Source: Candidatus Falkowbacteria bacterium (GTDB lineage: Bacteria; Patescibacteriota; Patescibacteriia; Patescibacteriales; UBA12465). Taken from it: DNA of 55,420 nucleotides. Shown in pieces: positions 43,027 through 55,420 of this stretch; positions within the stretch are counted from its first letter, which is position 1; each line of letters starts with the position of its first letter. Location: contig JAAZJO010000015.1 in NCBI GenBank assembly GCA_012800315.1, forward strand, positions 1 through 55,420, given 5' to 3'. The notes under the pieces were generated by a model that ran no database searches, had not been told where the DNA came from, and saw only the letters and a list, made by a program, of their open reading frames with translations. The translations under genes and the position numbers were made by a program.

Positions 43027-43776
43027 TTACGATTTAACCAAATTAATTATCAACCTAAAAATAGTCTTTAATCTTGCTTTAAAATATCTTGGATAATTAT
43101 TCTTATAACGACGAATTATTTTATCAGTAACCAAAATAGTTTTTAATCTTTTTTGTTTCGTTATACTTTTATCATGAATTAAATAGGCTGTCATAATATC
43201 GGGTAAATTAGCTAATTTATAATCACAACCAATTTTTAGCCATAAATCATAATCTTCACCAATATCTAATGAATCATTATAACCGCTAAAAGCCTTTTTT
43301 TTAAATAAAACACTAGATTGAGCAAATTGATTTTTCCAAAGAAGTTTATTTCTAATATTTTTATCATCCGTTTCAAAAATATCCTCTTTCAATACTGTGG
43401 CCCTCTCATCCTCACATCTAATAGCTGTGCCAATTAAAGCCACGTCTAAATAAGTATCTAAATAAACTACCTGTCTTGTTAATTTATCTCTAGATATCCA
43501 ATAATCATCGCTATCCAACATAGCAATATATTCTCCAACAGCCAAAGAAATACCTTTATTACGACTTTTAGCAATACCTAAATTTTTTTCGTTTAAATAA
43601 TACTTAATCCTATTATCATTAAAGGCTCTAACTATTTCACTAGTATTATCCGTGGAAGCATCATCAATAATCAAAAGCTCAAAATCTTGATAATCTTGGA
43701 ACAAAACACTATTTATTGCCCTGGATAATAAATCGGCACGATTATAAGTAATAATAATAACAGATACTTTTGGCAT
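43027..43776 (-). CDS. GT2 glycosyltransferase; ATG 43776 preferred
   Basis: PKVSVII.TYNR, IDDASTD, N.GI, LDSDD, EDYDLW. Confidence 0.93.
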   Translation of the reverse strand: MPKVSVIIITYNRADLLSRAINSVLFQDYQDFELLIIDDASTDNTSEIVRAFNDNRIKYYLNEKNLGIAKSRNKGISLAVGEYIAMLDSDDYWISRDKLTRQVVYLDTYLDVALIGTAIRCEDERATVLKEDIFETDDKNIRNKLLWKNQFAQSSVLFKKKAFSGYNDSLDIGEDYDLWLKIGCDYKLANLPDIMTAYLIHDKSITKQKRLKTILVTDKIIRRYKNNYPRYFKARLKTIFRLIINLVKS

Positions 43777-43777
43777 A

Positions 43778-44590
43778 TTATTTAACACTTATTTGAAGCC
43801 AGCTTGGTGGCAATAAATCATTATATTCATCCATAAAAACGTTATTCCATTTATTAGGGGCAATAACTATTTTATTTGGATTTTGATTAAGCCAAGCACC
43901 CCAAAAACTAAAAGTGGAATTAGAAATTATATTATGTTTACATCTGGACATGATTATTAATTCTTCACAATTCGTTAATTCAGGACTAGAAACAAAAACT
44001 AGATTATCTTTGTTATCCAGATTTTCTTTTGCCCAAACAATATCATCAGAAAAAATATAAAATACTGGATCAACAACTTTTTCCTTAATAATTCTAAAAG
44101 CCCTATTATAATATTCTAGTCCGCAAATAAAACACTCTTTATTATTCACATAATCACCACGCCGAATATGAACTGATATCGCATTAGATTGTAATTTATA
44201 ATCAATATCTTCCTTTAAAGTTATTTCTTTTAATAATTGCTCTTTAATCGGTTCTAAATATTTATAACTCTGAAAAAATCCTTCAATATAATTAGCTTTA
44301 GTTTCTAAAATATTTTTTTCGTAGCCAATATGATACTTTTTAAAAATCTTCTTATATATTTTAATTAATAGAGAAAATTTTGGCTTTACTCGCTTAATCT
44401 CACTATCAGAGGCAACCGTAGCACTAATATTAAAATTGTCTAAATCATAAAAACGAACGGTATCAGAACCAGAAAATAAATTATTATTATCAATCTTCAA
44501 TTCTTCTCCTCTTTTTTTAGCTAGAAAAAGTCCAAAAGCATATTGAAAAAGCTGATTACCCAAACCACCTTTTAATTTAATTATTATCAT
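43778..44590 (-). CDS. GT11 alpha-1,2-fucosyltransferase
   Basis: GGLGNQLFQYA, G.FQS.KY, HIRRGDY, FSDD..W, NSTFS.WGA.L. Confidence 0.93.
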   Translation of the reverse strand: MIIIKLKGGLGNQLFQYAFGLFLAKKRGEELKIDNNNLFSGSDTVRFYDLDNFNISATVASDSEIKRVKPKFSLLIKIYKKIFKKYHIGYEKNILETKANYIEGFFQSYKYLEPIKEQLLKEITLKEDIDYKLQSNAISVHIRRGDYVNNKECFICGLEYYNRAFRIIKEKVVDPVFYIFSDDIVWAKENLDNKDNLVFVSSPELTNCEELIIMSRCKHNIISNSTFSFWGAWLNQNPNKIVIAPNKWNNVFMDEYNDLLPPSWLQISVK

Positions 44591-44607
44591 GAAATTATGA
44601 ATTATTT

Positions 44608-45537
44608 TTAATAAATAGCTTCATTTACAATATCTAATAATTTTTTAGCACAAATAGAATCAGTAAAATTTTCTAAATAATATTTTCTAGGCGAAAATGT
44701 CAACTTATTTTTATCAAAATCTAACATTATTTTTTTTAACTCTTCAAGTGAAGAAAAAAATAAACCTGACTCATTATTTAAATATGGAGCTGAGACATCA
44801 TTACCACTAATACTTTTCCCTTTTATTTCATATACACCTTTAGTCCAAACAAAAGTTGGAACATCCTTCATCCAAGCCTCTAATAAGCTTATACCCTGTG
44901 ATTCTGATTCTTGTAAATATATAACACAAGAAGCTTTTTCTAATTTTTGTAAATAATCGGCTCTTAAATATTTTCCATAATATATTATTTCAAAATTATT
45001 ATAAACACCTTCCAAAAATAATATTACCTCTCTTATTAAATTTTTCGGCGCATTTTTTATATATAAAAGAGGCCCTGTTTTTTGTTTATTATTAAATCCA
45101 AGATCTTCAACCCCTGACGGCCAAATAAATAATTTATCTTTAATGTCTTTATTAAAAGATAACCAAACCTTTTTTACCCATTCGCTCGGAACTAATATAT
45201 AATCAATTTCTGAAGACAAAATAATACCATCAAAATCATCTGGCGTAACTACTAAATTTGGCCCAGCAATTAATTTTTTAATTTTCCCTTCTTTTTTTAA
45301 TTTTATCGCCCATCTTAAAGCATCAAGACTGCTATTAACAAAAAAAGTTTCTATTCCATTCAGTTTAGGATTATTTTTATTAAGAAAAAAAATAACCCCG
45401 AGCTCCTTTAAGCCTCTAATAAGACTCTTGTTAACAGCCTGGGGGCCACGATTTTTTCTAAAAATAAAGCGAGCAATTTCTTTGAAAAATTCTCTAGAAA
45501 AATAATTATACGGTTTTTTAATGTAAATATAAAACAT
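44608..45537 (-). CDS. GT-B (GT4-like) glycosyltransferase
   Basis: GP.AV, VPSEWV, ESQGISLLEA...DVP; TGATG overlap with the upstream stop. Confidence 0.7.
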   Translation of the reverse strand: MFYIYIKKPYNYFSREFFKEIARFIFRKNRGPQAVNKSLIRGLKELGVIFFLNKNNPKLNGIETFFVNSSLDALRWAIKLKKEGKIKKLIAGPNLVVTPDDFDGIILSSEIDYILVPSEWVKKVWLSFNKDIKDKLFIWPSGVEDLGFNNKQKTGPLLYIKNAPKNLIREVILFLEGVYNNFEIIYYGKYLRADYLQKLEKASCVIYLQESESQGISLLEAWMKDVPTFVWTKGVYEIKGKSISGNDVSAPYLNNESGLFFSSLEELKKIMLDFDKNKLTFSPRKYYLENFTDSICAKKLLDIVNEAIY

Positions 45538-46760
45538 CAATATATCTTTTTAAAATAATCTCTTACCTTTCTCAAGGTCTTATAATTATATTTATTTATC
45601 AACAATCTTTTTAATAAAAAATTAAAAAAATGATAAACTGCTCTTCTAATTTTATTTGGAAAAGGTCTCTTAATTACATCTTCATATATACTTATTATAT
45701 TATCCATTTGTCCGCCCAACTCATATTTTTCAAAAAATCTTTTTTTCGCTTTCTCGGATAAAGAATTATAATATTCTCTATCTTTTTCCATTCTATTTAA
45801 CTCTTTAGCATAATCATTGATATTAGAAAAAACTGCTCCAGCATTACCAATACATTCAACATGTCCATTATTGATTTCTGAAAAATGACTAATTATTGGA
45901 CAACCAAAATATAAAGCCTCAGCCATTGCTGTTGAATTAACCTCTCCGTCCTTTCTACCATGAGCATAAACATTTAATGTATTTAAAAACTTATAAACAA
46001 ATTGTTGATCAGCACTATGATCTAAAAATATAATATTTTTTATACCAAGACTTTTTGCCTGCTCACGATATTTTTTACTTCCACCGAGAATAATAAATAC
46101 ATTACTCTCTGATTCAACCATTTTATAAGCCAACAATGGGATTTCTGAAAAAATACTATCTTCATTTCTCTGATGAAAACCAAAAACAAATTTATCTTTA
46201 ATATTATACTCATCTCTCAAATCGCCTCCTTTAAATTTTATATCCATAGGATGAGATACTAAAACCACTCTTTTTTTATCTCCACCTTTTTTTATCCATT
46301 TATTAGCATTCCACTTACATATATGCATTACACGAGAAATATTATATTGATTATCTACCATTCCAGATAAATGTAAAGAATCAATTATTGCTGTCTTTTT
46401 TATTTTATAAAAAGGATACTCGGGGTTGCCAGCTCTTCCTGTTTGAATTATGTCATACTTATTTTCCGAAAATTTATCCCAAAAATCTGTATTAATCCAA
46501 TCATGAGTATAAACACCTAAATCAACATAATCTAAATTAAATTTTATCAAATTAACTCCAGCCTGCCGCATTAATGCAATCTTCTCACTATCATCATGAA
46601 CTACTGGATCGCTGTCCGGATTCTTGCAGACAACAGGATCACTATAATAATAATCAACCTTAAATCTATCTTTGGGTAAATTCATGGCTATTGTTTGTAA
46701 AAATTTTTCAGTACCGCCAGGAGAGAGGCCGTTAATTTTTATAATCGCTAATTTTATCAT
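45537..46760 (-). CDS. GT4-like glycosyltransferase
   Basis: GGTEK at the N-terminus; GE.NS..MAEA...G.PII. Confidence 0.8.
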   Translation of the reverse strand: MIKLAIIKINGLSPGGTEKFLQTIAMNLPKDRFKVDYYYSDPVVCKNPDSDPVVHDDSEKIALMRQAGVNLIKFNLDYVDLGVYTHDWINTDFWDKFSENKYDIIQTGRAGNPEYPFYKIKKTAIIDSLHLSGMVDNQYNISRVMHICKWNANKWIKKGGDKKRVVLVSHPMDIKFKGGDLRDEYNIKDKFVFGFHQRNEDSIFSEIPLLAYKMVESESNVFIILGGSKKYREQAKSLGIKNIIFLDHSADQQFVYKFLNTLNVYAHGRKDGEVNSTAMAEALYFGCPIISHFSEINNGHVECIGNAGAVFSNINDYAKELNRMEKDREYYNSLSEKAKKRFFEKYELGGQMDNIISIYEDVIKRPFPNKIRRAVYHFFNFLLKRLLINKYNYKTLRKVRDYFKKIY

Positions 46761-46798
46761 ATTTATAAAACTTATTTCTAATCTAATAAATATAAAAA

Positions 46799-47737
46799 CT
46801 AATTAATTATTTTATTTTTTATTTTATTTAAATACACTAACCATTTTGAAAAAACTTTACTCCTCGGCTTCCTGCCCACTCTTTTAATAAACTCTTCACG
46901 CAACTTCTCTATATCCCAAATCTGTAACGGCTCAAAAAATTTTATTCCATATTGATCAAAAAATTTAATAATCTCTTCAATATACCAATTATCATTTGAT
47001 AATCGTAAATCAATATTATTAATAAATTTTGAACTTAATTTCTCAGGAAGATTATTCTTCTGCCATTTTTTATTATCAATAGTTATTGAATAAGTATTAT
47101 TTATTCTTTTTGCGCTTCGTTTTCCCTCAACTAATTCTGAGCACCTATACCATGCTTGTTTATAATCATTTCTCTTTTTATTTAAATATTGCAGATGAAG
47201 AACAGCGCCATCGTCTGGCGGCACTATTATTGAATTTGCACCCCCCCCTCCTGGCGTTCTTTCTTCAGATAATTTTTTGTCTTTAAATTCCAATGTTCCA
47301 TCATCAAATACTATAAAGTCCTTATAAATTTCCCAAAACACTCCATCAGATCTATAACTTTTATGATCTAAAAGAAACACCCATTTCATCATTATTTTCT
47401 GACCCGGGACCATTCTTTCCAAATATTTATGATATGTAAGAAGAAAATTATCAGAAAAAACCTCATCAGCATCTAGCCAAATAAAATGGGTCCCCCCTCT
47501 TTCTCTCCCAATCTTAAGCAAGGTTTTTCTTTTTGTGGACATATTAACTGTTTGTCCATCAAATACTTCATTTTTAAAAACTATAGCCTTAGGAAATTTT
47601 GATAAAATATCTTTATAATCATCACTGGAATTATCATCTAATATAATAATTTCATCTGCGATAAGACTAAGTGATCCCAAACAAGCACTTAATACCCAGG
47701 CTTCATTTTTAATTGGCAACAAAGCTATTATTTTCAT
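46799..47737 (-). CDS. GT2-like glycosyltransferase; ATG 47737 preferred over TTG 47746
   Basis: LLPIKNEA, LDD.S.D, WLDADE, LH.Q. Confidence 0.82.
   Translation of the reverse strand: MKIIALLPIKNEAWVLSACLGSLSLIADEIIILDDNSSDDYKDILSKFPKAIVFKNEVFDGQTVNMSTKRKTLLKIGRERGGTHFIWLDADEVFSDNFLLTYHKYLERMVPGQKIMMKWVFLLDHKSYRSDGVFWEIYKDFIVFDDGTLEFKDKKLSEERTPGGGGANSIIVPPDDGAVLHLQYLNKKRNDYKQAWYRCSELVEGKRSAKRINNTYSITIDNKKWQKNNLPEKLSSKFINNIDLRLSNDNWYIEEIIKFFDQYGIKFFEPLQIWDIEKLREEFIKRVGRKPRSKVFSKWLVYLNKIKNKIIN
47241..47248 (-). repeat. G8 homopolymer on the coding strand of a glycosyltransferase
   Basis: C8 on the plus strand; codons GGA GGG GGG GGT. Confidence 0.8.
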
Positions 47738-47786
47738 TTTTATCAAAATTATTGTCCCCTACTTTACCACAACAACAAACTCTACG

Positions 47787-48752
47787 TTAACTATCTTTAA
47801 AAAATACTTTTTTAAAGCGCTTCAAAATGGTTCTTATATAATTCCTAATTTTTTTCAATCCTCTAACTATCGGCTTAAATAAAAATATCTTTTTAAAAAT
47901 GTATTTATTTAAACCAATATTTATTAATCTTTTATTTTTCTCTAAAACATCTAAATAGCCAGGCACATATTTATCAATTTTGATAAAATTACCATCTAAA
48001 TAACAATTATTTATATCATACTTAGTCGCTCTAGCCACTAAATCATAATCAAGTTTATCAAAAATTCCATACCTCAATTCTATTGCCGTCCTTTCAAGAG
48101 CTTGAACTGAATTTGGTCTTGTACTAGCTCCGAGTCCCTCATTTAAATAATATCCAAGCAAACCAGAAGTATATGCGGCCTTCGTATGGAAAGATAGTCT
48201 TATAGAAAAATCAAAATCGGCACCAGATCTAAATTGCTCATCAAAAAATCCAACTTTTTCACAAAGACTTTTTTTAAACATAAAAAATGGACCAAAAACC
48301 ATTGAACGAAAAAAATCATTATCAGAAAATTTACTACAATCAACTAGCCGACCACTCGTTGCGCCAAAAGTTCTCACAATCATAAAATCACCAAAAACTA
48401 CCCCACAATCACTTTCTTTCATTTTTTTATATTGTAGTTCTAGAGAATTCTCAGTACGCAAATCATCAACATTCCAAATAGCTAAATATTCTCCTGAAGA
48501 CTCTCTTATACAACGATTCATTGAAACACCAATCGGATCAACCTTATTAATAATAATATGTTTTAATCGTCCAGGATATTTATTTTGAAAATCTTTAATC
48601 CAAGAAATTTCTTCCTCATCTGGTTCATTATGATCTAAAACCACTTCCATTTGATTAAATATCGTCTGTTTTGGAAGTTCGTCAAGAAAGCGTTTCAAAT
48701 AACGCTTCATTCTAAAACAAGGAGTTATTGTACTCACTAATATTTCATTCAT
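47787..48752 (-). CDS. GT2 glycosyltransferase
   Basis: VS.ITP, N..I..S.G.Y....NVDD, G.FDE....ADFDF..R. Confidence 0.88.
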   Translation of the reverse strand: MNEILVSTITPCFRMKRYLKRFLDELPKQTIFNQMEVVLDHNEPDEEEISWIKDFQNKYPGRLKHIIINKVDPIGVSMNRCIRESSGEYLAIWNVDDLRTENSLELQYKKMKESDCGVVFGDFMIVRTFGATSGRLVDCSKFSDNDFFRSMVFGPFFMFKKSLCEKVGFFDEQFRSGADFDFSIRLSFHTKAAYTSGLLGYYLNEGLGASTRPNSVQALERTAIELRYGIFDKLDYDLVARATKYDINNCYLDGNFIKIDKYVPGYLDVLEKNKRLINIGLNKYIFKKIFLFKPIVRGLKKIRNYIRTILKRFKKVFFKDS

Positions 48753-49549
48753 ATATTTTCTTTTTTTACAAGCTCTATCATTTCCCTCAGGCCAGTTTCT
48801 AAATCAACTTTTGGAAACCATCCTGGAATTTTCCCCTTAATTGGTGTTATAGGTGTTGAGCCAATCTTTTTACCAGGAATAACCTTAGCACCCGTAATTT
48901 TCGCAATCAGATTAGCAACATCAATAACCTTGACCCACTCAAAACTTGTCACATCATGAATACCCTTTAAATTATTAGAAATAGCTATGTGCCAAGCTTG
49001 ACAGACATCTGATATATTAATAAATTGCCTTTTTTCCTCACCAGTGGTCATCATTCTTATTTCGCCTGTTTCTACTGCTTGTCTAACAAAATCAGAAACA
49101 ACATGACTTCTTTCAGAATTATTTTCTACTGGACCATATACGTTCCATTGTCTTATAAAAACTCCTCCTAACAACCTAGTCCAAACCTCTCCCAATCTCT
49201 TAGTAACCCCATACACTGTATCATATTCCTCGGCTAATTGGCTTGAAATAAATAGAAAAGGTTTTCCACTTTTTCCTATCTGAGGCATTAAATTGGATAA
49301 TAACTTAAGATTCCACTCTAATTGATATAATTGAGCGCTTTCTTTATAAAGATACTTTGCACCACCAACATCCCAAGCTAAAAAATAAATGCGATCAATT
49401 TCGCTAAAATCAATCTTAGCTTTACGGGCATCCTCGTGCTCTCCTCTTTTAATATCAAAGCGCACAACAGACTCTCCTTGTTTCTCAAGAAAATCACATA
49501 AATAATTACCAATAAATCCATCTGAGCCAATAACTAAATTTTTGATCAT
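48749..49549 (-). CDS. Short NAD-dependent epimerase/dehydratase
   Basis: GSDGFIG, YGVTK, NVYGP, G.E.RQF....D. Confidence 0.88.
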   Translation of the reverse strand: MIKNLVIGSDGFIGNYLCDFLEKQGESVVRFDIKRGEHEDARKAKIDFSEIDRIYFLAWDVGGAKYLYKESAQLYQLEWNLKLLSNLMPQIGKSGKPFLFISSQLAEEYDTVYGVTKRLGEVWTRLLGGVFIRQWNVYGPVENNSERSHVVSDFVRQAVETGEIRMMTTGEEKRQFINISDVCQAWHIAISNNLKGIHDVTSFEWVKVIDVANLIAKITGAKVIPGKKIGSTPITPIKGKIPGWFPKVDLETGLREMIELVKKENI

Positions 49550-49588
49550 AATTTTATTTATAAATTAAAAATTAATAAAAAATTAAAA

Positions 49589-50461
49589 TTAAATTATCTT
49601 AAAAAATTTTTTAATAACTAAATTTAAATTTTTAATAAAAATCACTACTTTTAAAATTAATCTATTCAATAATCCTATAAAAACTCTATTAGAAAATATT
49701 TCCGAATTATTTAATTTCTTATAACTAAGTCTCAAATTCCAAATATATTGATCACCCCCAATTAGTTTATCAGAATATTCTTGAACTTTTTCCATAATTA
49801 ACGTTTCCCCAAAAATCTTTTTAGAAAAAATTGATAACAATGTCGTGTCATGCCTAAACATCTCGCAATCTCTAATAAAATAATTCTTATCTTTTCCTTT
49901 ATTTCTCCAAGAGTCTTTTTTAGAAAAACCCAAACAAAGACCAGTCACTCCTGCCTCATAGGTCAATTGAGTAACTTCTTTTATTTTAGCAGATCCCCGC
50001 TTAAAGCCAAAAATGCCAGCCGTAACAGGTTCTGAATCCAATAATAAGCTATCCAAATTAAAAATACCAATATATTCTGAAGGTGTCATTTTCCTAATAG
50101 TGTTCTCTTTACCAACACCAACTAAAAGATATCCATTATTATTAATTTTATTAAAAATATTATCAAGTGGTCTCAATATCTGACACCCAGCATCTATATA
50201 AAAATTATTTTCAGCAAGCGGATTATTTAAAATATATGTTTTCCATGTATAACAGGATCTCCAATACTTTACAAAATGAGGAACCTCTAAAACTGTAACG
50301 CCCTCTATTGCTTCAATTTCCTTTCTAAAAATACTAAATAAACCAAGATCGTAGACATAAATTCTGGGATGATTATGATAAATCTTTTTTATTGACCCTA
50401 ATAAATTAATCAAAGATGGGAAAAATTTATTTGAAGCTGACGTGATTATACAATTATCCAT
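49589..50461 (-). CDS. DUF1647-like putative GT-A glycosyltransferase
   Basis: ITSAS..FF..L..L..SI, YDLGL, Y.WK, YIDAG, RHD. Confidence 0.6.
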   Translation of the reverse strand: MDNCIITSASNKFFPSLINLLGSIKKIYHNHPRIYVYDLGLFSIFRKEIEAIEGVTVLEVPHFVKYWRSCYTWKTYILNNPLAENNFYIDAGCQILRPLDNIFNKINNNGYLLVGVGKENTIRKMTPSEYIGIFNLDSLLLDSEPVTAGIFGFKRGSAKIKEVTQLTYEAGVTGLCLGFSKKDSWRNKGKDKNYFIRDCEMFRHDTTLLSIFSKKIFGETLIMEKVQEYSDKLIGGDQYIWNLRLSYKKLNNSEIFSNRVFIGLLNRLILKVVIFIKNLNLVIKKFFKII

Positions 50462-50488
50462 ATTAATTAAATTTATATTTTTATATTA

Positions 50489-51811
50489 TCAATTATTACG
50501 AATCACTCTATAAACCATCTCTCGGCTCTCCTTAAATAAAAACAAACTTAGAGACATTAAAATATAAGAAATAAAAGTAGCCCAGGCTGCACCAACAATA
50601 CCAAAACGAGAAATCATAAAAAAATTAAGAATAATATTAGCAGTCATGGAAATAAAAGATGAAAATAGTACTATACGACGATAATTTTCAGCTATTAAAT
50701 AACTATTACATAAACTACCAATTGCCGTTCCAACATTAGACCAAATATATACTTGTAAAACAGCGATACTACCTAAAAAGGCTGGACCATAAAGAATTGA
50801 AACTATTGGCTTAGCCAAAACAGAGGTAATTACAGAAATAGTGATTGAAAAAAATAAAAGAAAAAGAAAAAGATAGCGCAAACGTTTAACATATTTAACA
50901 TCACTTTCCTTTTTGGCATTAATAATAGCCGGAAAGAGAGAACTAACAATAATGCCAGGAATAAAATACCAAACCTCCGTTAAACGAACAGCGGCATCAT
51001 AAAGACCAACTGCTGAAGCGTCTATCATATTCTTAATCATCACTTGATCAACACGAGCATAAATTGTAGCAAAAGCATTAGAAACTATTAATGGCCATGA
51101 ATCATGAAGTATTTTTTTAGCAACAGCACTATCGTAACGCCAAGCAAAAACACTTTCCTTTAATTTCTTTTTATATATATATAAATAAAGAACTGCATAA
51201 AGAATTGATTCTAAAAGAAGAATTAAAGCTAAATAAATAATTCCCTTGCCTAAAATAATGATAATAATTTTTAAAATATTTAAAGTAATAGAAATAATTA
51301 AAGAAATCAAAGAAGGATATTTAGATTGAACTCGAGCTTGAAATTCATAAATTATTATTTGAAAAGCATTAAAAATAAAAGTTGAGGCAATAATAAATAT
51401 CAAAATATTAGAAATCACATCTTTGTTGATCAAAAGCGTTGTAATACAACAAATAATCATGGTAACCAAGCCAGCTAAGACTCTCATTAAAAACGAAGAT
51501 CCAAGATAAGTTGAGCGCTTTTCCGGGTACTTTACCAAATCTCTAAATAAAATTTGATCAATTCCTAGTGTAGCGATAAAAGAAAATAAACCAACAAAAC
51601 TAACGGCATAACTTAATTGTCCATAATTTTCTGGCCCAAGACTTCTAGCGACAAAAATAGTAGTAACAAAAGATATGGCCAAACTTAAAATTCTAGCTAT
51701 CATCATCCACCCCGTGTTCTTAAAATATTTACGAAAACCACTGTGGCTCAATATCCATTGCCATTTCTTGGGAATAAAGCGATTAATTTTATCAAAAGTT
51801 GCGTCAATCAT
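50489..51811 (-). CDS. Wzx-type polysaccharide flippase
   Basis: KNT.W, AR.LGP..YG, D.VMI, VG.Y.AA.R, G..GAAWAT; about 12 TM. Confidence 0.93.
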   Translation of the reverse strand: MIDATFDKINRFIPKKWQWILSHSGFRKYFKNTGWMMIARILSLAISFVTTIFVARSLGPENYGQLSYAVSFVGLFSFIATLGIDQILFRDLVKYPEKRSTYLGSSFLMRVLAGLVTMIICCITTLLINKDVISNILIFIIASTFIFNAFQIIIYEFQARVQSKYPSLISLIISITLNILKIIIIILGKGIIYLALILLLESILYAVLYLYIYKKKLKESVFAWRYDSAVAKKILHDSWPLIVSNAFATIYARVDQVMIKNMIDASAVGLYDAAVRLTEVWYFIPGIIVSSLFPAIINAKKESDVKYVKRLRYLFLFLLFFSITISVITSVLAKPIVSILYGPAFLGSIAVLQVYIWSNVGTAIGSLCNSYLIAENYRRIVLFSSFISMTANIILNFFMISRFGIVGAAWATFISYILMSLSLFLFKESREMVYRVIRNN

Positions 51812-51832
51812 TTTAAATAAATAAAAAAGAGC

Positions 51833-52081
51833 TTACCACTCTTTTGTTTTTTCAATTACTTTATGTTTTAAATCTAAATAAGTTTTCGCAGTCTTTTCTT
51901 CCGCTTTAGGAGATACTAATTTTAAAATTTCCAATCCCAAAATCCGATATTGCTTCCCTACCTTATTAGCCTTAAGTAAGCCACTTTTTAGTAAGCGCTT
52001 CATTGTACTATTACTGATCTTTAATAATTTTTCAGTTTCACTAGTTGTATAAACAGCCTGCGGTTTTATTTCCTCCGTCAT
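51833..52081 (-). CDS. Small HTH_17 (Xis/BldC/MerR-like) DNA-binding protein
   Basis: YTT.E...LLKIS.ST..RL.K.G.LKA.KVG.QYRI plus a C-terminal helix. Confidence 0.88.
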   Translation of the reverse strand: MTEEIKPQAVYTTSETEKLLKISNSTMKRLLKSGLLKANKVGKQYRILGLEILKLVSPKAEEKTAKTYLDLKHKVIEKTKEW

Positions 52082-52089
52082 ATAAAAAC

Positions 52090-52140
52090 ATTATACTCTT
52101 ATCAAGAGAAAAGGGTCAATAGGTGTCTTTAAGTGCCAAA
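52090..52140 (-). promoter_or_regulatory. Promoter of the HTH-wzx cassette with candidate operator
   Basis: TTGACC (52119-52114), 18 bp, TATAAT (52095-52090); CTCTT-ATC-AAGAG in the spacer; three 10-bp direct repeats at 52111-52140. Confidence 0.65.
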
Positions 52141-53229
52141 TTAATGCTTATAAACCTCTAAATACCCCTTAATCATCCGTTCTAAAGCAAAAATCTCTTT
52201 ATTAGTTTTCACTAATTTAACATTTTTAATCAACTGTAAAAAATCAGCCTGATCATTTAATTGAAAACAATTTTCAATTCCCACAATTTCTTCATTGCCG
52301 CCCACTCTACTAGCTATAGCTGGGACACCAGCACTAATTGCTTCTATCAAACTAAGAGATAGTCCCTCAAAAATTGATGGCAAAACAAATAAATCAAATG
52401 CTTTTAAATATTTACTCGCCTCCATTATTTCCCCTGTCAAAATAATTTCATTCTCTAATTTATATAAAGAAATTAAATTTTCATACTTAACTCTTTCTGG
52501 TCCTTCGCCAATTAAAACTAATTTAGCTCCGGGCTTAATCTCTTTTAACGCCTGATGAGAATTAATTAAAAATTCATAATTCTTCGGATAGGCTAAGCGA
52601 CCAATAGAACCATAAACATAATCATCCTCATTTAACCCCAGCTCCCTTCGTGCCTCCTCACGATTTAAATAATAATCTGATCTTTGCTCTATGCCATTAT
52701 AAATTAAATGACTTTTTGCCTTTAAACCCTTAAGCAATCCTGAGTTATAAGCATAATCTAAATTTAATTTACTAACAAAAACAATATCAGCTAGTTTTTT
52801 AAAAGCTGCCCGAAAAAAAAGACGATATGCTTTTCTAAGCAATGCTGAAGACTTATGTTGTCTGTCTAATAATGATAGACCATGAACGGTGAATACTAAA
52901 CGTGGCCTTGTGTTCAAACTAGCCAGCCCCCAAGCACCCAACAAAGCATTAGTGCTATTTAAATGAACTACTTCAAATCCTTCTTTTAACACATATTGCC
53001 TTAATTCTGAAATAAACTTTAAAGTTTGTAGAGGATTATAGCTTCTAGTTAAATTATTGAAACGTTTAAAAGTAATTCCCAATTTATTCAATTCTTTAGG
53101 TAAATAATCGCCCGCTCCACCAGCTACCACAACCTCTTCTCCCGCCTCTTTTAAACCACGCGCTAAATTAAGCGCAAAAACTTGTGCTCCACCTATTTCT
53201 GATTTAGTTATAACTAAAAGAATTTTCAT
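52141..53229 (-). CDS. GT4 glycosyltransferase
   Basis: GGAQ, TVHG, IYNGI, IGRL..PKN, EGL....IEA...G.P.IAS.VGG..E. Confidence 0.92.
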   Translation of the reverse strand: MKILLVITKSEIGGAQVFALNLARGLKEAGEEVVVAGGAGDYLPKELNKLGITFKRFNNLTRSYNPLQTLKFISELRQYVLKEGFEVVHLNSTNALLGAWGLASLNTRPRLVFTVHGLSLLDRQHKSSALLRKAYRLFFRAAFKKLADIVFVSKLNLDYAYNSGLLKGLKAKSHLIYNGIEQRSDYYLNREEARRELGLNEDDYVYGSIGRLAYPKNYEFLINSHQALKEIKPGAKLVLIGEGPERVKYENLISLYKLENEIILTGEIMEASKYLKAFDLFVLPSIFEGLSLSLIEAISAGVPAIASRVGGNEEIVGIENCFQLNDQADFLQLIKNVKLVKTNKEIFALERMIKGYLEVYKH

Positions 53230-54686
53230 ATTATATTTTTTTCTTTAACAAACAAATAATTAAAAATATTTAATATTAAAAAATAAACTACCACTATAAA
53301 ATATATTGGCATTGAAAAATAAATCCAAATAATTAACGCCAACAAAAATTCAAACAAAAAGAGTTTAACTTTAAAACTTCTCACCTTCTTTAATTGAACC
53401 TTGTTACGTCTCTTTAGAAAATAAAAATAAATTTCTGAGGGAGCATCAAACAAAAAAAATGATAAAAATATATTTATAAAAATATTATTGTTAACCGAAT
53501 TTACTAGTACAAGTAACGGAACAGCTTTTCTAAAAATCTTTAAAAGAAAAAAAGTAACTATACGCAAATTATTTTTTATAAGAGAATGAATTATATATGC
53601 AACCAAACACAAACCCAAACATAAAATATAAATATTACTGCAATACCCTAAATTAAATAAAAACAATAATATAATGGCTGCAAAAATAATTCTAATAAAT
53701 AGAAATAACGCAAAATTAATTTTAATGCCACTTTTTATTCTTAATGTGCCATTGCCATCCTTTTCTTTATGAGCAAGTAAATCATTATATAAGCCCCCAA
53801 CTTCATAAACCGAATAAAATACAAGGAAAGATAGGGGAATAACAAAAAAATTACTCAACTCTTGATTAGTAAAGAAATAAACTATTAAGGTAAAGGGAAT
53901 TATTTCTTTAAGAAATAAATGATAAAAAAAACTAGAATGCCATCTACTAACCGCATAATAAATAACTGGAATATAGATCCATTTTACAGTTTTTTCATTT
54001 ATAGAGCCTACATCTTTATTTCTATATTCATAATTATTTAAATACAAAAAATTAAAATTATTATTATTCTCTTCTAGTAGCTTATTATTAGAATCATGAA
54101 CCACAAAATAACTTTTTCCAAAACTTTTCATAAAATTTAAATCCTCAATATTATCAGAATATACTGATGAGTAATTTAAATCATATAAAGATAATTCCAG
54201 CGCTTCCTCCTTCCCTCCTAATAAATCTTTTTTTAATTTGCCCGTATACCTTCCTTCTTTTTCCTCCAATTCAGATGAGACATATTCAATATTTAATATT
54301 TTAGCCAATTCTTTAATAGGGGGATTGATTGATGAGGACACTATCATTACCTTATCTTTATTTTTTTTCTCCTCATCAATCATTCTTATTATTTCTTCAT
54401 TTAAATACTCCCTGCTAATCACTTCAATATATTCTTTAGCCCTTTTTCCTACTAAATCTACAGAAAAATTCTTTAACAATCCAATGCTCCACTCACGTAT
54501 AATGTCTCGTTTTATTAATTTATAAATTTTTGTATAATTTATAATTATTGAAAATAATAAAAATATCTTAAAAATTATAAATCTAAAAAATTTATCTTTT
54601 TTTAAAACATAATTTATAAAATCAAACGTATTATTTGTTTTAGTTATTGTCCCACAAGCATCAAAAACAGCTATCTTTTTTTCCAT
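53226..54686 (-). CDS. HAD-IB phosphatase fused to a UbiA-like membrane domain
   Basis: VFDACGT, IVSSS, K, YSDN.ED in the N-terminal half; multi-TM C-terminal half with YEVGGLYND.....E....T.R. Confidence 0.75.
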   Translation of the reverse strand: MEKKIAVFDACGTITKTNNTFDFINYVLKKDKFFRFIIFKIFLLFSIIINYTKIYKLIKRDIIREWSIGLLKNFSVDLVGKRAKEYIEVISREYLNEEIIRMIDEEKKNKDKVMIVSSSINPPIKELAKILNIEYVSSELEEKEGRYTGKLKKDLLGGKEEALELSLYDLNYSSVYSDNIEDLNFMKSFGKSYFVVHDSNNKLLEENNNNFNFLYLNNYEYRNKDVGSINEKTVKWIYIPVIYYAVSRWHSSFFYHLFLKEIIPFTLIVYFFTNQELSNFFVIPLSFLVFYSVYEVGGLYNDLLAHKEKDGNGTLRIKSGIKINFALFLFIRIIFAAIILLFLFNLGYCSNIYILCLGLCLVAYIIHSLIKNNLRIVTFFLLKIFRKAVPLLVLVNSVNNNIFINIFLSFFLFDAPSEIYFYFLKRRNKVQLKKVRSFKVKLFLFEFLLALIIWIYFSMPIYFIVVVYFLILNIFNYLFVKEKNII

Positions 54687-54785
54687 TTTTTAACAATTAT
54701 AATAAAATGAAACCATCCTCTCTATTATCTTAAAAAATTTATCTAACATCTTATCTTAAATCTTTAGTAAACCCAGACTCCCCCC

Positions 54786-55420
54786 CTACTTCGCTGTCCA
54801 GCCGCCATCAATATATAAAACCTCGCCAGTCACATATTTTGATTCATCAGAAGCTAGATAAACAGTCGCAGCTGCAATATCCTCAACTTCACCGACCCGT
54901 CCCAAAGGGGTTGAGGAAATAATCATCTTATTAAATCGCTTAGCTCCTAGCGCATTTTTAGTCATGGCGGTAGTAATAAAACCTGGAGCAATCGCATTAA
55001 CACGGATATTAAAAGGTGCTAAATCAAGCGCACTAGCGCGTGTTAATTGAACCACACCACCCTTAGAGGCACAATAAGCAATAGAGCCCTGAAAACCAAC
55101 TTTGCCAAGAATAGAGCTCATATTAATAATTACCCCGCCCCGACCCTGTTTTTTCATTATTTTAGCGGCCGCCCGAGCACCATACATTGCCCCCGATAAA
55201 TTAATAGCCAAGGTTTGATTCCAATTCTCGTCTGTCACCTCTAAAACACCTCCTGTGCCACCAATTCCAGCATTATTAATAATAATGTCCAATCCGCCAA
55301 ATTTAGCCACAGTAGCGGCAATTAAGCTATTTACCTCCTCTGAATTAGCCACATTACACTTCATAAACATCGCCTTGCTACCAAACTTAGCCACCAATGA
55401 CTTATCACCATTAATGTCTG
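54786..55420 (-). CDS. Classical SDR oxidoreductase (FabG/glucose dehydrogenase-like), 5' end outside the window
   Basis: NNAG, NMSS, YCASK, VNAIAPG.I.T, DGG; the frame stays open to the window end and the TGxxxGIG motif is not yet reached. Confidence 0.92.
   Translation of the reverse strand, partial: DINGDKSLVAKFGSKAMFMKCNVANSEEVNSLIAATVAKFGGLDIIINNAGIGGTGGVLEVTDENWNQTLAINLSGAMYGARAAAKIMKKQGRGGVIINMSSILGKVGFQGSIAYCASKGGVVQLTRASALDLAPFNIRVNAIAPGFITTAMTKNALGAKRFNKMIISSTPLGRVGEVEDIAAATVYLASDESKYVTGEVLYIDGGWTAK

Follow-up and report, generated by a model that had tools for sequence, protein, structure and literature searches.

The 55,420-nucleotide stretch analysed here, hereafter the window (positions 1 to 55,420 of contig JAAZJO010000015.1, assembly GCA_012800315.1, Candidatus Falkowbacteria bacterium), carries on its minus strand a gene for an 82-amino-acid HTH_17 protein, whose 59-bp upstream gap contains a promoter overlapped by three head-to-tail 10-bp repeats, the third of which includes the -35 hexamer. 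The pairing of gene and repeat array is conserved in homologous loci, where the next gene is generally devoted to glycan export or glycan biosynthesis, and the protein is considered, with fair though incomplete confidence, a dedicated autoregulator that binds head-to-tail at the promoter of the glycan locus, probably as a repressor.

Read on the gene strand from 5' to 3', the gap consists of T TTGGCACTTA AAGACACCTA TTGACCCTTT TCTCTTGATAAGAG TATAAT GTTTTTAT ATG. TTGACC-18-TATAAT is the best sigma-70-like match (11/12) within 49500-55420 and is followed, 8 nt after the end of the -10, by the regulator ATG; a Shine-Dalgarno motif is absent. A preliminary description of this DNA, made from the sequence alone, had reported the same promoter and the same distance to the ATG, with which both the coordinates and the scan agree; likewise, the open reading frame, the Pfam match and the gap length that it gave for the HTH_17 gene are as it said. 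It had also recognized three adjacent 10-mers, the first over the -35: these repeats are real, but the proposed register and consensus (ARGKGYCWWW on the plus strand) are shifted by one base relative to the conserved unit, which on the gene strand is TTGACMCCTW. The array is unique in the genome. In fact, a relaxed three-unit pattern has one match in the window and none in 100 shuffles, and with a weight matrix built only from the copies of other genomes the window triple reaches 30.2 bits and the runner-up in the 634-kb genome 9.0; including the window's own copies in the matrix, the two values become 32.7 and 8.4 bits, with maxima of 12-16 in five simulated genomes. The spacer also contains a CTCTT-N3-AAGAG palindrome, which the preliminary description had listed; it is present but is at chance level and not conserved, since perfect inverted repeats of at least 5 bp with a loop of 3-8 nt occur in 29% of gap shuffles (7% with a loop of exactly 3), an equal or better palindrome is found in 315 of the 939 59-nt tiles of the window, and no CTCTT-N3-AAGAG palindrome was found in homologous spacers.

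The conservation of the array was evaluated in 87 unique loci, within 330 nt upstream of the gene. Of these, 83 carry two or three tandem copies spaced by exactly 10 bp (three copies in 60, two in 23), so that the upstream repeats are conserved as the preliminary description had anticipated; the four loci with no scored array comprise one with too little upstream sequence, the N-masked L081, L113 and L125. Within the unit, the conserved positions are T2, G3, A4, C5 and C7; C7, present in 78-96% of the copies, lies outside the -35 hexamer, and T9 is present in 73-79%. One copy always coincides with the -35, namely the last one in 20 loci (the window and its genus among them) and the penultimate one in 52 loci, in which the last copy sits in the promoter spacer; the assignment is unclear in 11. 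An equivalent -35/-10 pair is present in the homologous loci, and the analogy with MerR operators located in long spacers, drawn in the preliminary description, does not hold, because the spacers measure 16-18 nt and the direct repeats contain the -35 itself.

Array and gene are also paired at the genome scale. The strict triple pattern has 12 matches in 61 related genomes, in comparison to none for the reversed control, and all 12, one of which is a contig-end duplicate, are located just upstream of a homologue; no match occurs in 40 genomes lacking a protein match. A strict two-copy pattern gave one match in 401 phylum-wide genomes against four for the reversed control, and this single match lies 62 nt upstream of a homologue with 68% identity; the main result of the phylum-wide scan is the rarity of the strict motif beyond the lineage of the gene.

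The distance between promoter and start codon is a further conserved character. In 44 of 83 loci the ATG lies 6-9 nt from the -10; in 66 of the 83, the ATG encountered first downstream of the -10 is both open and in frame. In L027, L029, L031, L033 and L034 a few extra N-terminal residues keep the ATG 8-9 nt from the -10; the start codon thus tracks the promoter, as expected for a leaderless mRNA, and a Shine-Dalgarno-like motif precedes the start in only one of 79 loci of the window's subfamily. A leaderless mRNA is predicted from the regulator promoter on the basis of this geometry, which across loci supports the nearly leaderless transcript suggested in the preliminary description. A different arrangement is observed in L041 and L043, two apparent exceptions to the conservation of the array, where the array promoter is located 180-215 nt upstream and is followed at once by the ATG of a 9-11-codon open reading frame, with a strong hairpin in L043; it may represent a leader-peptide or attenuator variant of the module.

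The regulator product matches Pfam HTH_17 (PF12728) with 36.7 bits (cut-off 27) and NCBIfam TIGR01764 "excise", the excisionase-family DNA-binding domain, with 29.8 bits, just over the cut-off of 28.8; with the MamR model NF040990 it scores 43.9 bits, far under the equivalog cut-off of 100. It is the sole HTH_17 match in the genome (634 kb, 17 contigs, 97.75% complete). A large protein database contains 480 relatives, nearly all of 82-97 amino acids, and strong full-length homologues are present in 9 of 36 same-genus genomes and in 8 of 24 genomes belonging to other families of the same order. When one genome per species was scanned, 304 stretches encoding a homologue were found, among whose record titles are Falkow-, Kuenen-, Komeili-, Magasanik-, Buchanan-, Taylor-, Yonath- and Wolfebacteria, Paceibacterota and Parcubacteria. 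Across families the regulator proteins are 62-84% identical; 67 distinct sequences align without gaps, with 80% mean column identity, and their invariant residues include K28, R29, N39-G42, Q44-I47, S57, P58, K72 and the C-terminal W82. In addition, four database proteins of 216-280 amino acids (P0129, P0156, P0158 and P0181) contain four or five tandem copies of the HTH domain; such proteins may correspond, in covalently linked form, to protomers arranged head-to-tail on direct repeats.

The AlphaFold2 model, obtained from 30 aligned sequences, has a predicted local distance difference test (pLDDT) score of 83 and the order b1-a1-a2-wing-a3 plus a long a4; in particular, b1 spans residues 10-12, a1 13-20, a2 24-33, the two-strand wing 38-48, a3 49-56 and a4 58-81. 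The best Foldseek matches are BldC chains on direct-repeat DNA (6ama, 6amk), with template modelling (TM) scores of 0.74-0.84 on the target, a root-mean-square deviation (rmsd) of 1.3-1.8 A over 50-51 residues and an E value of 0.03; chain 6amk_B has a TM score of 0.84 on the target and an rmsd of 1.3 A over 50 columns. RdfS, Pukovnik Xis, RacA and MerR-type domains come next. VIA-align ranks Pukovnik Xis (Z 8.1, rmsd 2.1 A, 53 residues) before BldC (Z 7.1), RdfS (Z 6.5) and the GIsul2 transposon excisionase (Z 6.4), and gives P2 Cox (4lhf_A) a Z of only 5.0, with a poor rmsd of 9.3 A over 70 residues. Model, Foldseek and VIA-align all support the Xis/BldC-like fold named in the preliminary description. 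The model has no effector domain; its extra helix a4, of 24 residues and about 36 A, would be nearly as long as one DNA turn. The conserved residues E61, A64, Y68, K72 and the invariant W82 are located on one face of a4, which suggests an interaction surface.

A further line of evidence concerns the neighbouring genes, for which open reading frames were called in 18 related-genome loci and 68 further loci and scanned against Pfam. The gene at position +1, on the same strand, is a glycan exporter or a glycan biosynthesis gene in 79 of 84 loci, and an exporter in 55 of 84, so that the glycan linkage is found across homologues, as the preliminary description proposed. In the window and the 18 loci the +1 genes encode Wzx (9), Wzm (1), GDP-mannose dehydratase (5), a fused ABC exporter (2), a PseB-type dehydratase (1) and a radical-SAM/B12 protein (1); in 65 new loci they encode Wzx (13), the fused ABC exporter (22), Wzm (7), Wzt (1), a dehydratase or epimerase (12), GT4 (2), a PseB-type enzyme (1), a cytidylyltransferase (1), NeuB (1), a sulfotransferase (1), a radical-SAM/B12 protein (1), a small 23S rRNA intervening sequence protein (2) and a protein with no family (1). 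The fused ABC proteins are classed as glycan exporters by context only; in L040 and L043 the fused ABC gene is followed by capsule-synthesis (L040), PseB and DegT genes. The gap between the regulator and the next gene is below 100 nt in all 57 listed loci having one, mostly below 40 nt. On the upstream side, 53 of 82 neighbours share the strand of the regulator and 29 are divergent; the neighbour is often a glycan gene as well (GT4, epimerase, Bac_transf, Wzy_C, Capsule_synth). Within the genus (L027-L034) the regulator is 76-84% identical and the upstream GT4, where a homologue is present, 56-64%; in contrast, wzx reaches only 39-45% identity in six of seven comparisons (61% in L032), and for most downstream genes, including glycosyltransferases, there is no counterpart. 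This contrast places the regulator module on the border that separates a conserved flank from a hypervariable, serotype-like cassette.

A sister subfamily, represented by 80 loci (L139-L218) from metagenome contigs, encodes proteins 45-55% identical to that of the window, with a different tail (...YNKxRxWxH). Three to five 10-bp-phased TGAY units are present in 45 of the 78 sister loci with sufficient upstream sequence; their logo is WTGAC[T/A][A/T]YTA, and position 7 is C in 2% of the copies versus 78-96% in the window's subfamily. Residue 28, in the recognition helix, is Lys in 67 of 67 proteins of the window's subfamily and Thr or Met in 42 of 42 sister proteins. An apparent recognition code would therefore associate Lys28 with C7 and Thr/Met with A/T. 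Groups are also distinguished within the window's subfamily, K43/L50 proteins occurring with TTGAC[C/A]CCTA and G43/K50 proteins with TTGACACYTT. The sister genes are followed by sugar genes, mostly of nonulosonic-acid (pseudaminic/legionaminic-acid-type) pathways; of 56 loci, the downstream gene encodes a PseB-type enzyme in 19, a dehydratase or epimerase in 10, DegT in 7, NeuB in 4, a cytidylyltransferase in 2, a methyltransferase in 5 and other proteins in 4, and 5 are scored as none. A Shine-Dalgarno-like motif is present in 50 of 73 sister loci; since the sister genes have leaders with such motifs, leaderlessness appears special to the small-genome subfamily.

Taken in order, the proposed mechanism would begin with two or three protomers binding, presumably cooperatively, head-to-tail and on one DNA face to the 10-bp-phased TTGACMCCTW repeats; the 24-residue C-terminal helix, with its invariant Trp end, probably joins neighbouring protomers. 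The core of each repeat being itself a -35 hexamer, the bound protein would take the site needed by sigma region 4, and its own near-consensus promoter would be repressed by the exclusion of sigma from the -35. The leaderless mRNA would start at the regulator ATG and run on into the exporter and glycosyltransferase genes, so that negative feedback would limit how strongly the variable portion of the glycan cluster is expressed.

The same repeats could be used in the opposite direction. The protein may bind them as a BldC-like architectural factor that activates or remodels the promoter by DNA bending, by recruitment of the polymerase from -45/-55 or by counter-silencing, with positive feedback generating an on/off glycan switch. 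The copies at about -55, -45 and -35 in the window's genus, and the coincidence of the last copy with the -35 in 20 loci, suit an upstream activator, and PMC5859096 describes BldC as distorting DNA and controlling many promoters; furthermore, the autoregulated switch that the preliminary description had inferred would need positive feedback. However, the hexamers are near consensus (11/12, with a 17-18 nt spacer) and an activator is unneeded, and in the 52 loci having the last copy in the spacer and the penultimate one as the -35 the protein would collide with sigma; activation is thus judged unlikely. The repeats could also act with no protein bound, as stacked -35-like elements that raise polymerase occupancy, the small protein acting elsewhere. 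Every repeat contains a TTGAC(A/C) hexamer, as such an explanation requires, but conservation continues past the hexamer (C7 78-96%, T9 73-79%), and the array has no second site in the genome, is never seen apart from the gene and changes with the protein subfamily, which renders this explanation very improbable.

The resemblance to excisionases, that is, the TIGR01764 match and the Xis proteins among the best structural matches, together with the position of the gene exactly at the boundary between conserved flank and hypervariable cassette, raises the question whether the protein is a recombination directionality factor or anchor and the repeats mark a site for exchange or inversion of the glycan cassette. 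Against this stand the 222 neighbours scanned (93 at positions -2 to +4 in 18 loci, 65 +1 genes and 64 -1 genes), among which there is no integrase or recombinase; the only tyrosine recombinase of the genome (a Phage_integrase match) is on contig C8, not on C10 where the regulator is located, and the absence of a nearby integrase noted in the preliminary description is thus extended to the homologues. Moreover, the promoter has no notable flanking inverted repeats, and the repeats always lie over the promoter at a fixed distance from the start codon, an arrangement for which a recombination site would have no use; a role in recombination appears highly improbable. An invertible promoter was separately rejected, the gap being flanked by AT-rich imperfect inverted repeats only. 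A last possibility is a processive antiterminator loaded at or between the promoter elements in the manner of Q or AlpA and riding the polymerase through the glycan operon of about 9 kb. RfaH and UpxY are antiterminators that serve other polysaccharide loci; the length of the operons and the weak hairpin with a T-run behind the regulator gene speak for this possibility. The binding element would lie inside the promoter, as PMC9371919 reports for the AlpA and Q elements, but the same text presents AlpA and Q as larger proteins built of many helices, with a ring at the N-terminus and an HTH at the C-terminus; in particular, it assigns AlpA eight helices, with residue numbering to at least 142. 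The ring of such antiterminators enters the RNA exit channel. In contrast, the 82-amino-acid protein consists of an N-terminal winged helix and a single extra helix, the leaderless transcript leaves no sigma-dependent pause site, and the hairpin is not conserved. An AlpA-type antiterminator is rejected on architecture, and antitermination in general has a very small chance of being correct.

Several observations weigh against autorepression by a head-to-tail array. The sign of regulation comes from geometry only, and BldC-type proteins can also activate. In the window, the first two repeats are degenerate (TTGGCA, AAGACA), and the array is missing in 3 of 86 loci with sufficient upstream sequence (L113, L125 and the N-masked L081); about ten loci have their promoter 60-215 nt upstream, and there the mRNA is hence not leaderless. 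As regards the protein, the Foldseek E value of 0.03 is weak, as is usual for a 50-residue domain, and the C-terminal helix a4 (58-81) is modelled with a pLDDT of 60-72; a search of the PDB with the 30-sequence profile, at E<=1, retrieved no BldC or Xis chain, a result frequent for small fast-evolving domains, and gave only a marginal MarR-type match, AdcR (E 0.049). The co-variation of repeat and recognition residue involves two clades only and is confounded by descent. Finally, the regulator gene is embedded in a longer co-oriented glycan run and is not its head: the preliminary description is correct for the downstream genes, but GT4, HAD and SDR genes are co-oriented upstream of the regulator. 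Three metatranscriptome runs and one probable DNA run contain short low-depth contigs, which cover 51721-53034, leave wzx uncovered and give no start-site information; one RNA-library contig (51940-52208) bridges the GT4/regulator gap, DNA carry-over being possible, and read-through could accordingly feed the operon regardless of the regulator promoter.

The features of the locus are collected in Table 1. The stop codon of GT4 adjoins the first repeat, and the cassette downstream of the regulator is presumed to be its regulated operon. The hairpin across the regulator stop codon has 13-nt arms, 85% complementary, and a 7-nt loop, followed by a T-run, and is possibly an attenuator of transcription into wzx; nevertheless, a terminator scan of 49500-55420 retrieved neither this hairpin nor any other, and it is not conserved, the gap to the next gene being too short for such a hairpin in most homologue loci. 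The HAD-IB fusion gene encodes a 486-amino-acid protein with an N-terminal HAD-IB phosphatase domain (5-200), whose C-terminal ~280 residues have no Pfam or NCBIfam family match; similarly, two cassette genes on the minus strand, 44608-45540 (310 amino acids) and 49589-50461 (290 amino acids), are devoid of a convincing Pfam or NCBIfam family.

Table 1. Coordinates of the features of the glycan locus and of the regulator promoter in the window.
Feature	Position	Strand	Basis
Putative operator, three head-to-tail 10-bp repeats, the third including the -35	52110-52139	-	sequence, genome uniqueness, conservation upstream of homologues
Repeat 1, TTGGCACTTA	52139-52130	-	
Repeat 2, AAGACACCTA	52129-52120	-	
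Repeat 3, TTGACCCTTT, holding the -35	52119-52110	-	
Sigma-70-type promoter, TTGACC-18-TATAAT	-35 52119-52114, -10 52095-52090	-	best match in scan
Predicted start of transcription, no more than 2 nt away from the ATG (52081-52079)	52079-52083	-	-10/ATG geometry
CTCTT-GAT-AAGAG palindrome in the spacer, judged chance	52096-52108	-	shuffles, tiles, homologous spacers
HTH_17 regulator gene, 82 amino acids	51833-52081	-	open reading frame call, Pfam, NCBIfam
Gap between the GT4 stop codon and the regulator gene, 59 bp	52082-52140		
GT4 glycosyltransferase gene, co-oriented, upstream; conserved locus flank	52141-53229	-	Pfam
HAD-IB fusion gene, upstream of GT4	53226-54686	-	Pfam
SDR gene, upstream, extending past the window edge	54786-55418	-	Pfam
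Downstream cassette: wzx, unknown, epimerase-like, GT2, GT2, GT1-like, unknown, GT11, GT2	43027-51811	-	Pfam
AT-rich weak hairpin with T-run across the regulator stop codon	51819-51851	-	inverted-repeat search

Other observations concern the surroundings of the gene. Genes for small 23S rRNA intervening sequence proteins (four-helix bundles) are located beside the regulator or within its glycan operon in the unrelated loci L037, L081, L102 and L106. A gene with a Fic/DOC domain is present upstream of the regulator in L029, L034, L036, L057, L059 and L070, directly in five of them and one gene further in L036. DNA nearly identical to window positions 51500-52600 occurs in metagenome runs from biogas fermenters and bioreactor sludge of at least 10 studies (2015-2025), which indicates that the strain recurs in such reactors.

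The known systems closest to the locus share single traits with it. The Streptomyces protein BldC (6AMA/6AMK) is, like the modelled regulator, a small stand-alone MerR-like winged helix, and its direct repeats match the two to three phased repeats found here; according to PMC5859096, BldC occupies direct repeats in head-to-tail fashion, in variable number and with a spacing of about one DNA turn. However, BldC is a pleiotropic developmental regulator with AT-rich sites (AATTxxxxC), whereas the repeats described here have a TGAC core doubling as the -35, occur once per genome and are tied to glycan genes; in addition, the solved BldC chains, of 51-57 residues, are devoid of the 24-residue C-terminal helix. 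The Xis-type proteins (Pukovnik Xis 4J2N, lambda Xis, RdfS 8DGL, TorI) share the HTH_17/TIGR01764 domain and the winged-helix fold, and PMC11963761 describes Xis and RdfS as oligomerizing head-to-tail on DNA, with RdfS repressing its own promoter; in contrast, the regulator has no neighbouring integrase, attachment site or mobile element and belongs to a chromosomal glycan locus in many lineages. P2 Cox and 186 Apl, with a winged helix and C-terminal helices, offer a functional model for repression by a phased array, although the structural match (4LHF) is weak and these proteins are phage-encoded and also act as excisionases. P2 Cox and 186 Apl bind direct-repeat arrays (cox boxes) and repress a promoter. 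In PMC11963761, P2 Cox is reported to oligomerize through its extra C-terminal helices.

The MerR proteins have the N-terminal winged-helix fold in common with the regulator but are coiled-coil dimers that sense ligands and bind a palindrome in a 19-20 bp spacer, whereas direct repeats, 16-18 nt spacers and no effector domain are found here. Bacteroides UpxY/UpxZ and enterobacterial RfaH/ops are locus-specific regulators heading polysaccharide operons, and the likeness consists in one small regulator at the 5' end of each variable polysaccharide locus; in fact, the regulator occurs twice in genome G040, at two glycan loci, and a separate repeat array accompanies each copy. UpxY/UpxZ and RfaH differ in being NusG-like antiterminators that act on the polymerase or leader RNA, whereas the protein described here is predicted to bind DNA as a winged helix, at an operator located within the promoter.

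A full-text library that lacks most subscription-journal papers yielded no account of a glycan-locus regulator of this type. The domain and the binding mode are already known; what is new is the combination of glycan-locus pairing, a -35-mimicking phased operator, a leaderless design, an extra C-terminal helix and an apparent recognition code. A bolder and rather unlikely proposal is that regulator, operator and leaderless promoter constitute a portable, self-contained expression module, based on a -35-mimic operator, sigma competition and a short filament locked by helices, that serves as a fixed 5' anchor for cassettes swapped by homologous recombination; the anchor role is suggested by the far higher conservation of the module (62-84%) in comparison to the genes behind it (wzx 39-45%, 61% in L032). 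If this is true, a sugar-coat cassette would be expressed immediately upon its acquisition, at a fixed level limited by feedback.

Gene regulation is little known in the bacteria of the candidate phyla radiation (CPR), which have tiny genomes and few cultured members, and their surface glycans are thought to be important for host attachment and phage evasion. The locus offers here a complete regulatory unit, formed by an 82-amino-acid protein, a 30-bp putative operator and a consensus promoter that the E. coli polymerase should read, and about 140 natural protein-operator variants from which a recognition code may be readable. It also provides comparative evidence for leaderless translation in the CPR group, marks the conserved edge of a hypervariable serotype-like cassette and would extend the head-to-tail binding mode of BldC and Xis to the control of polysaccharide loci. 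If the bolder proposal of a portable module is correct, the same logic, with co-evolved repeat and recognition residue, would run nonulosonic-acid operons in other bacteria, and the family would represent a widespread, undescribed class of polysaccharide-locus governors.

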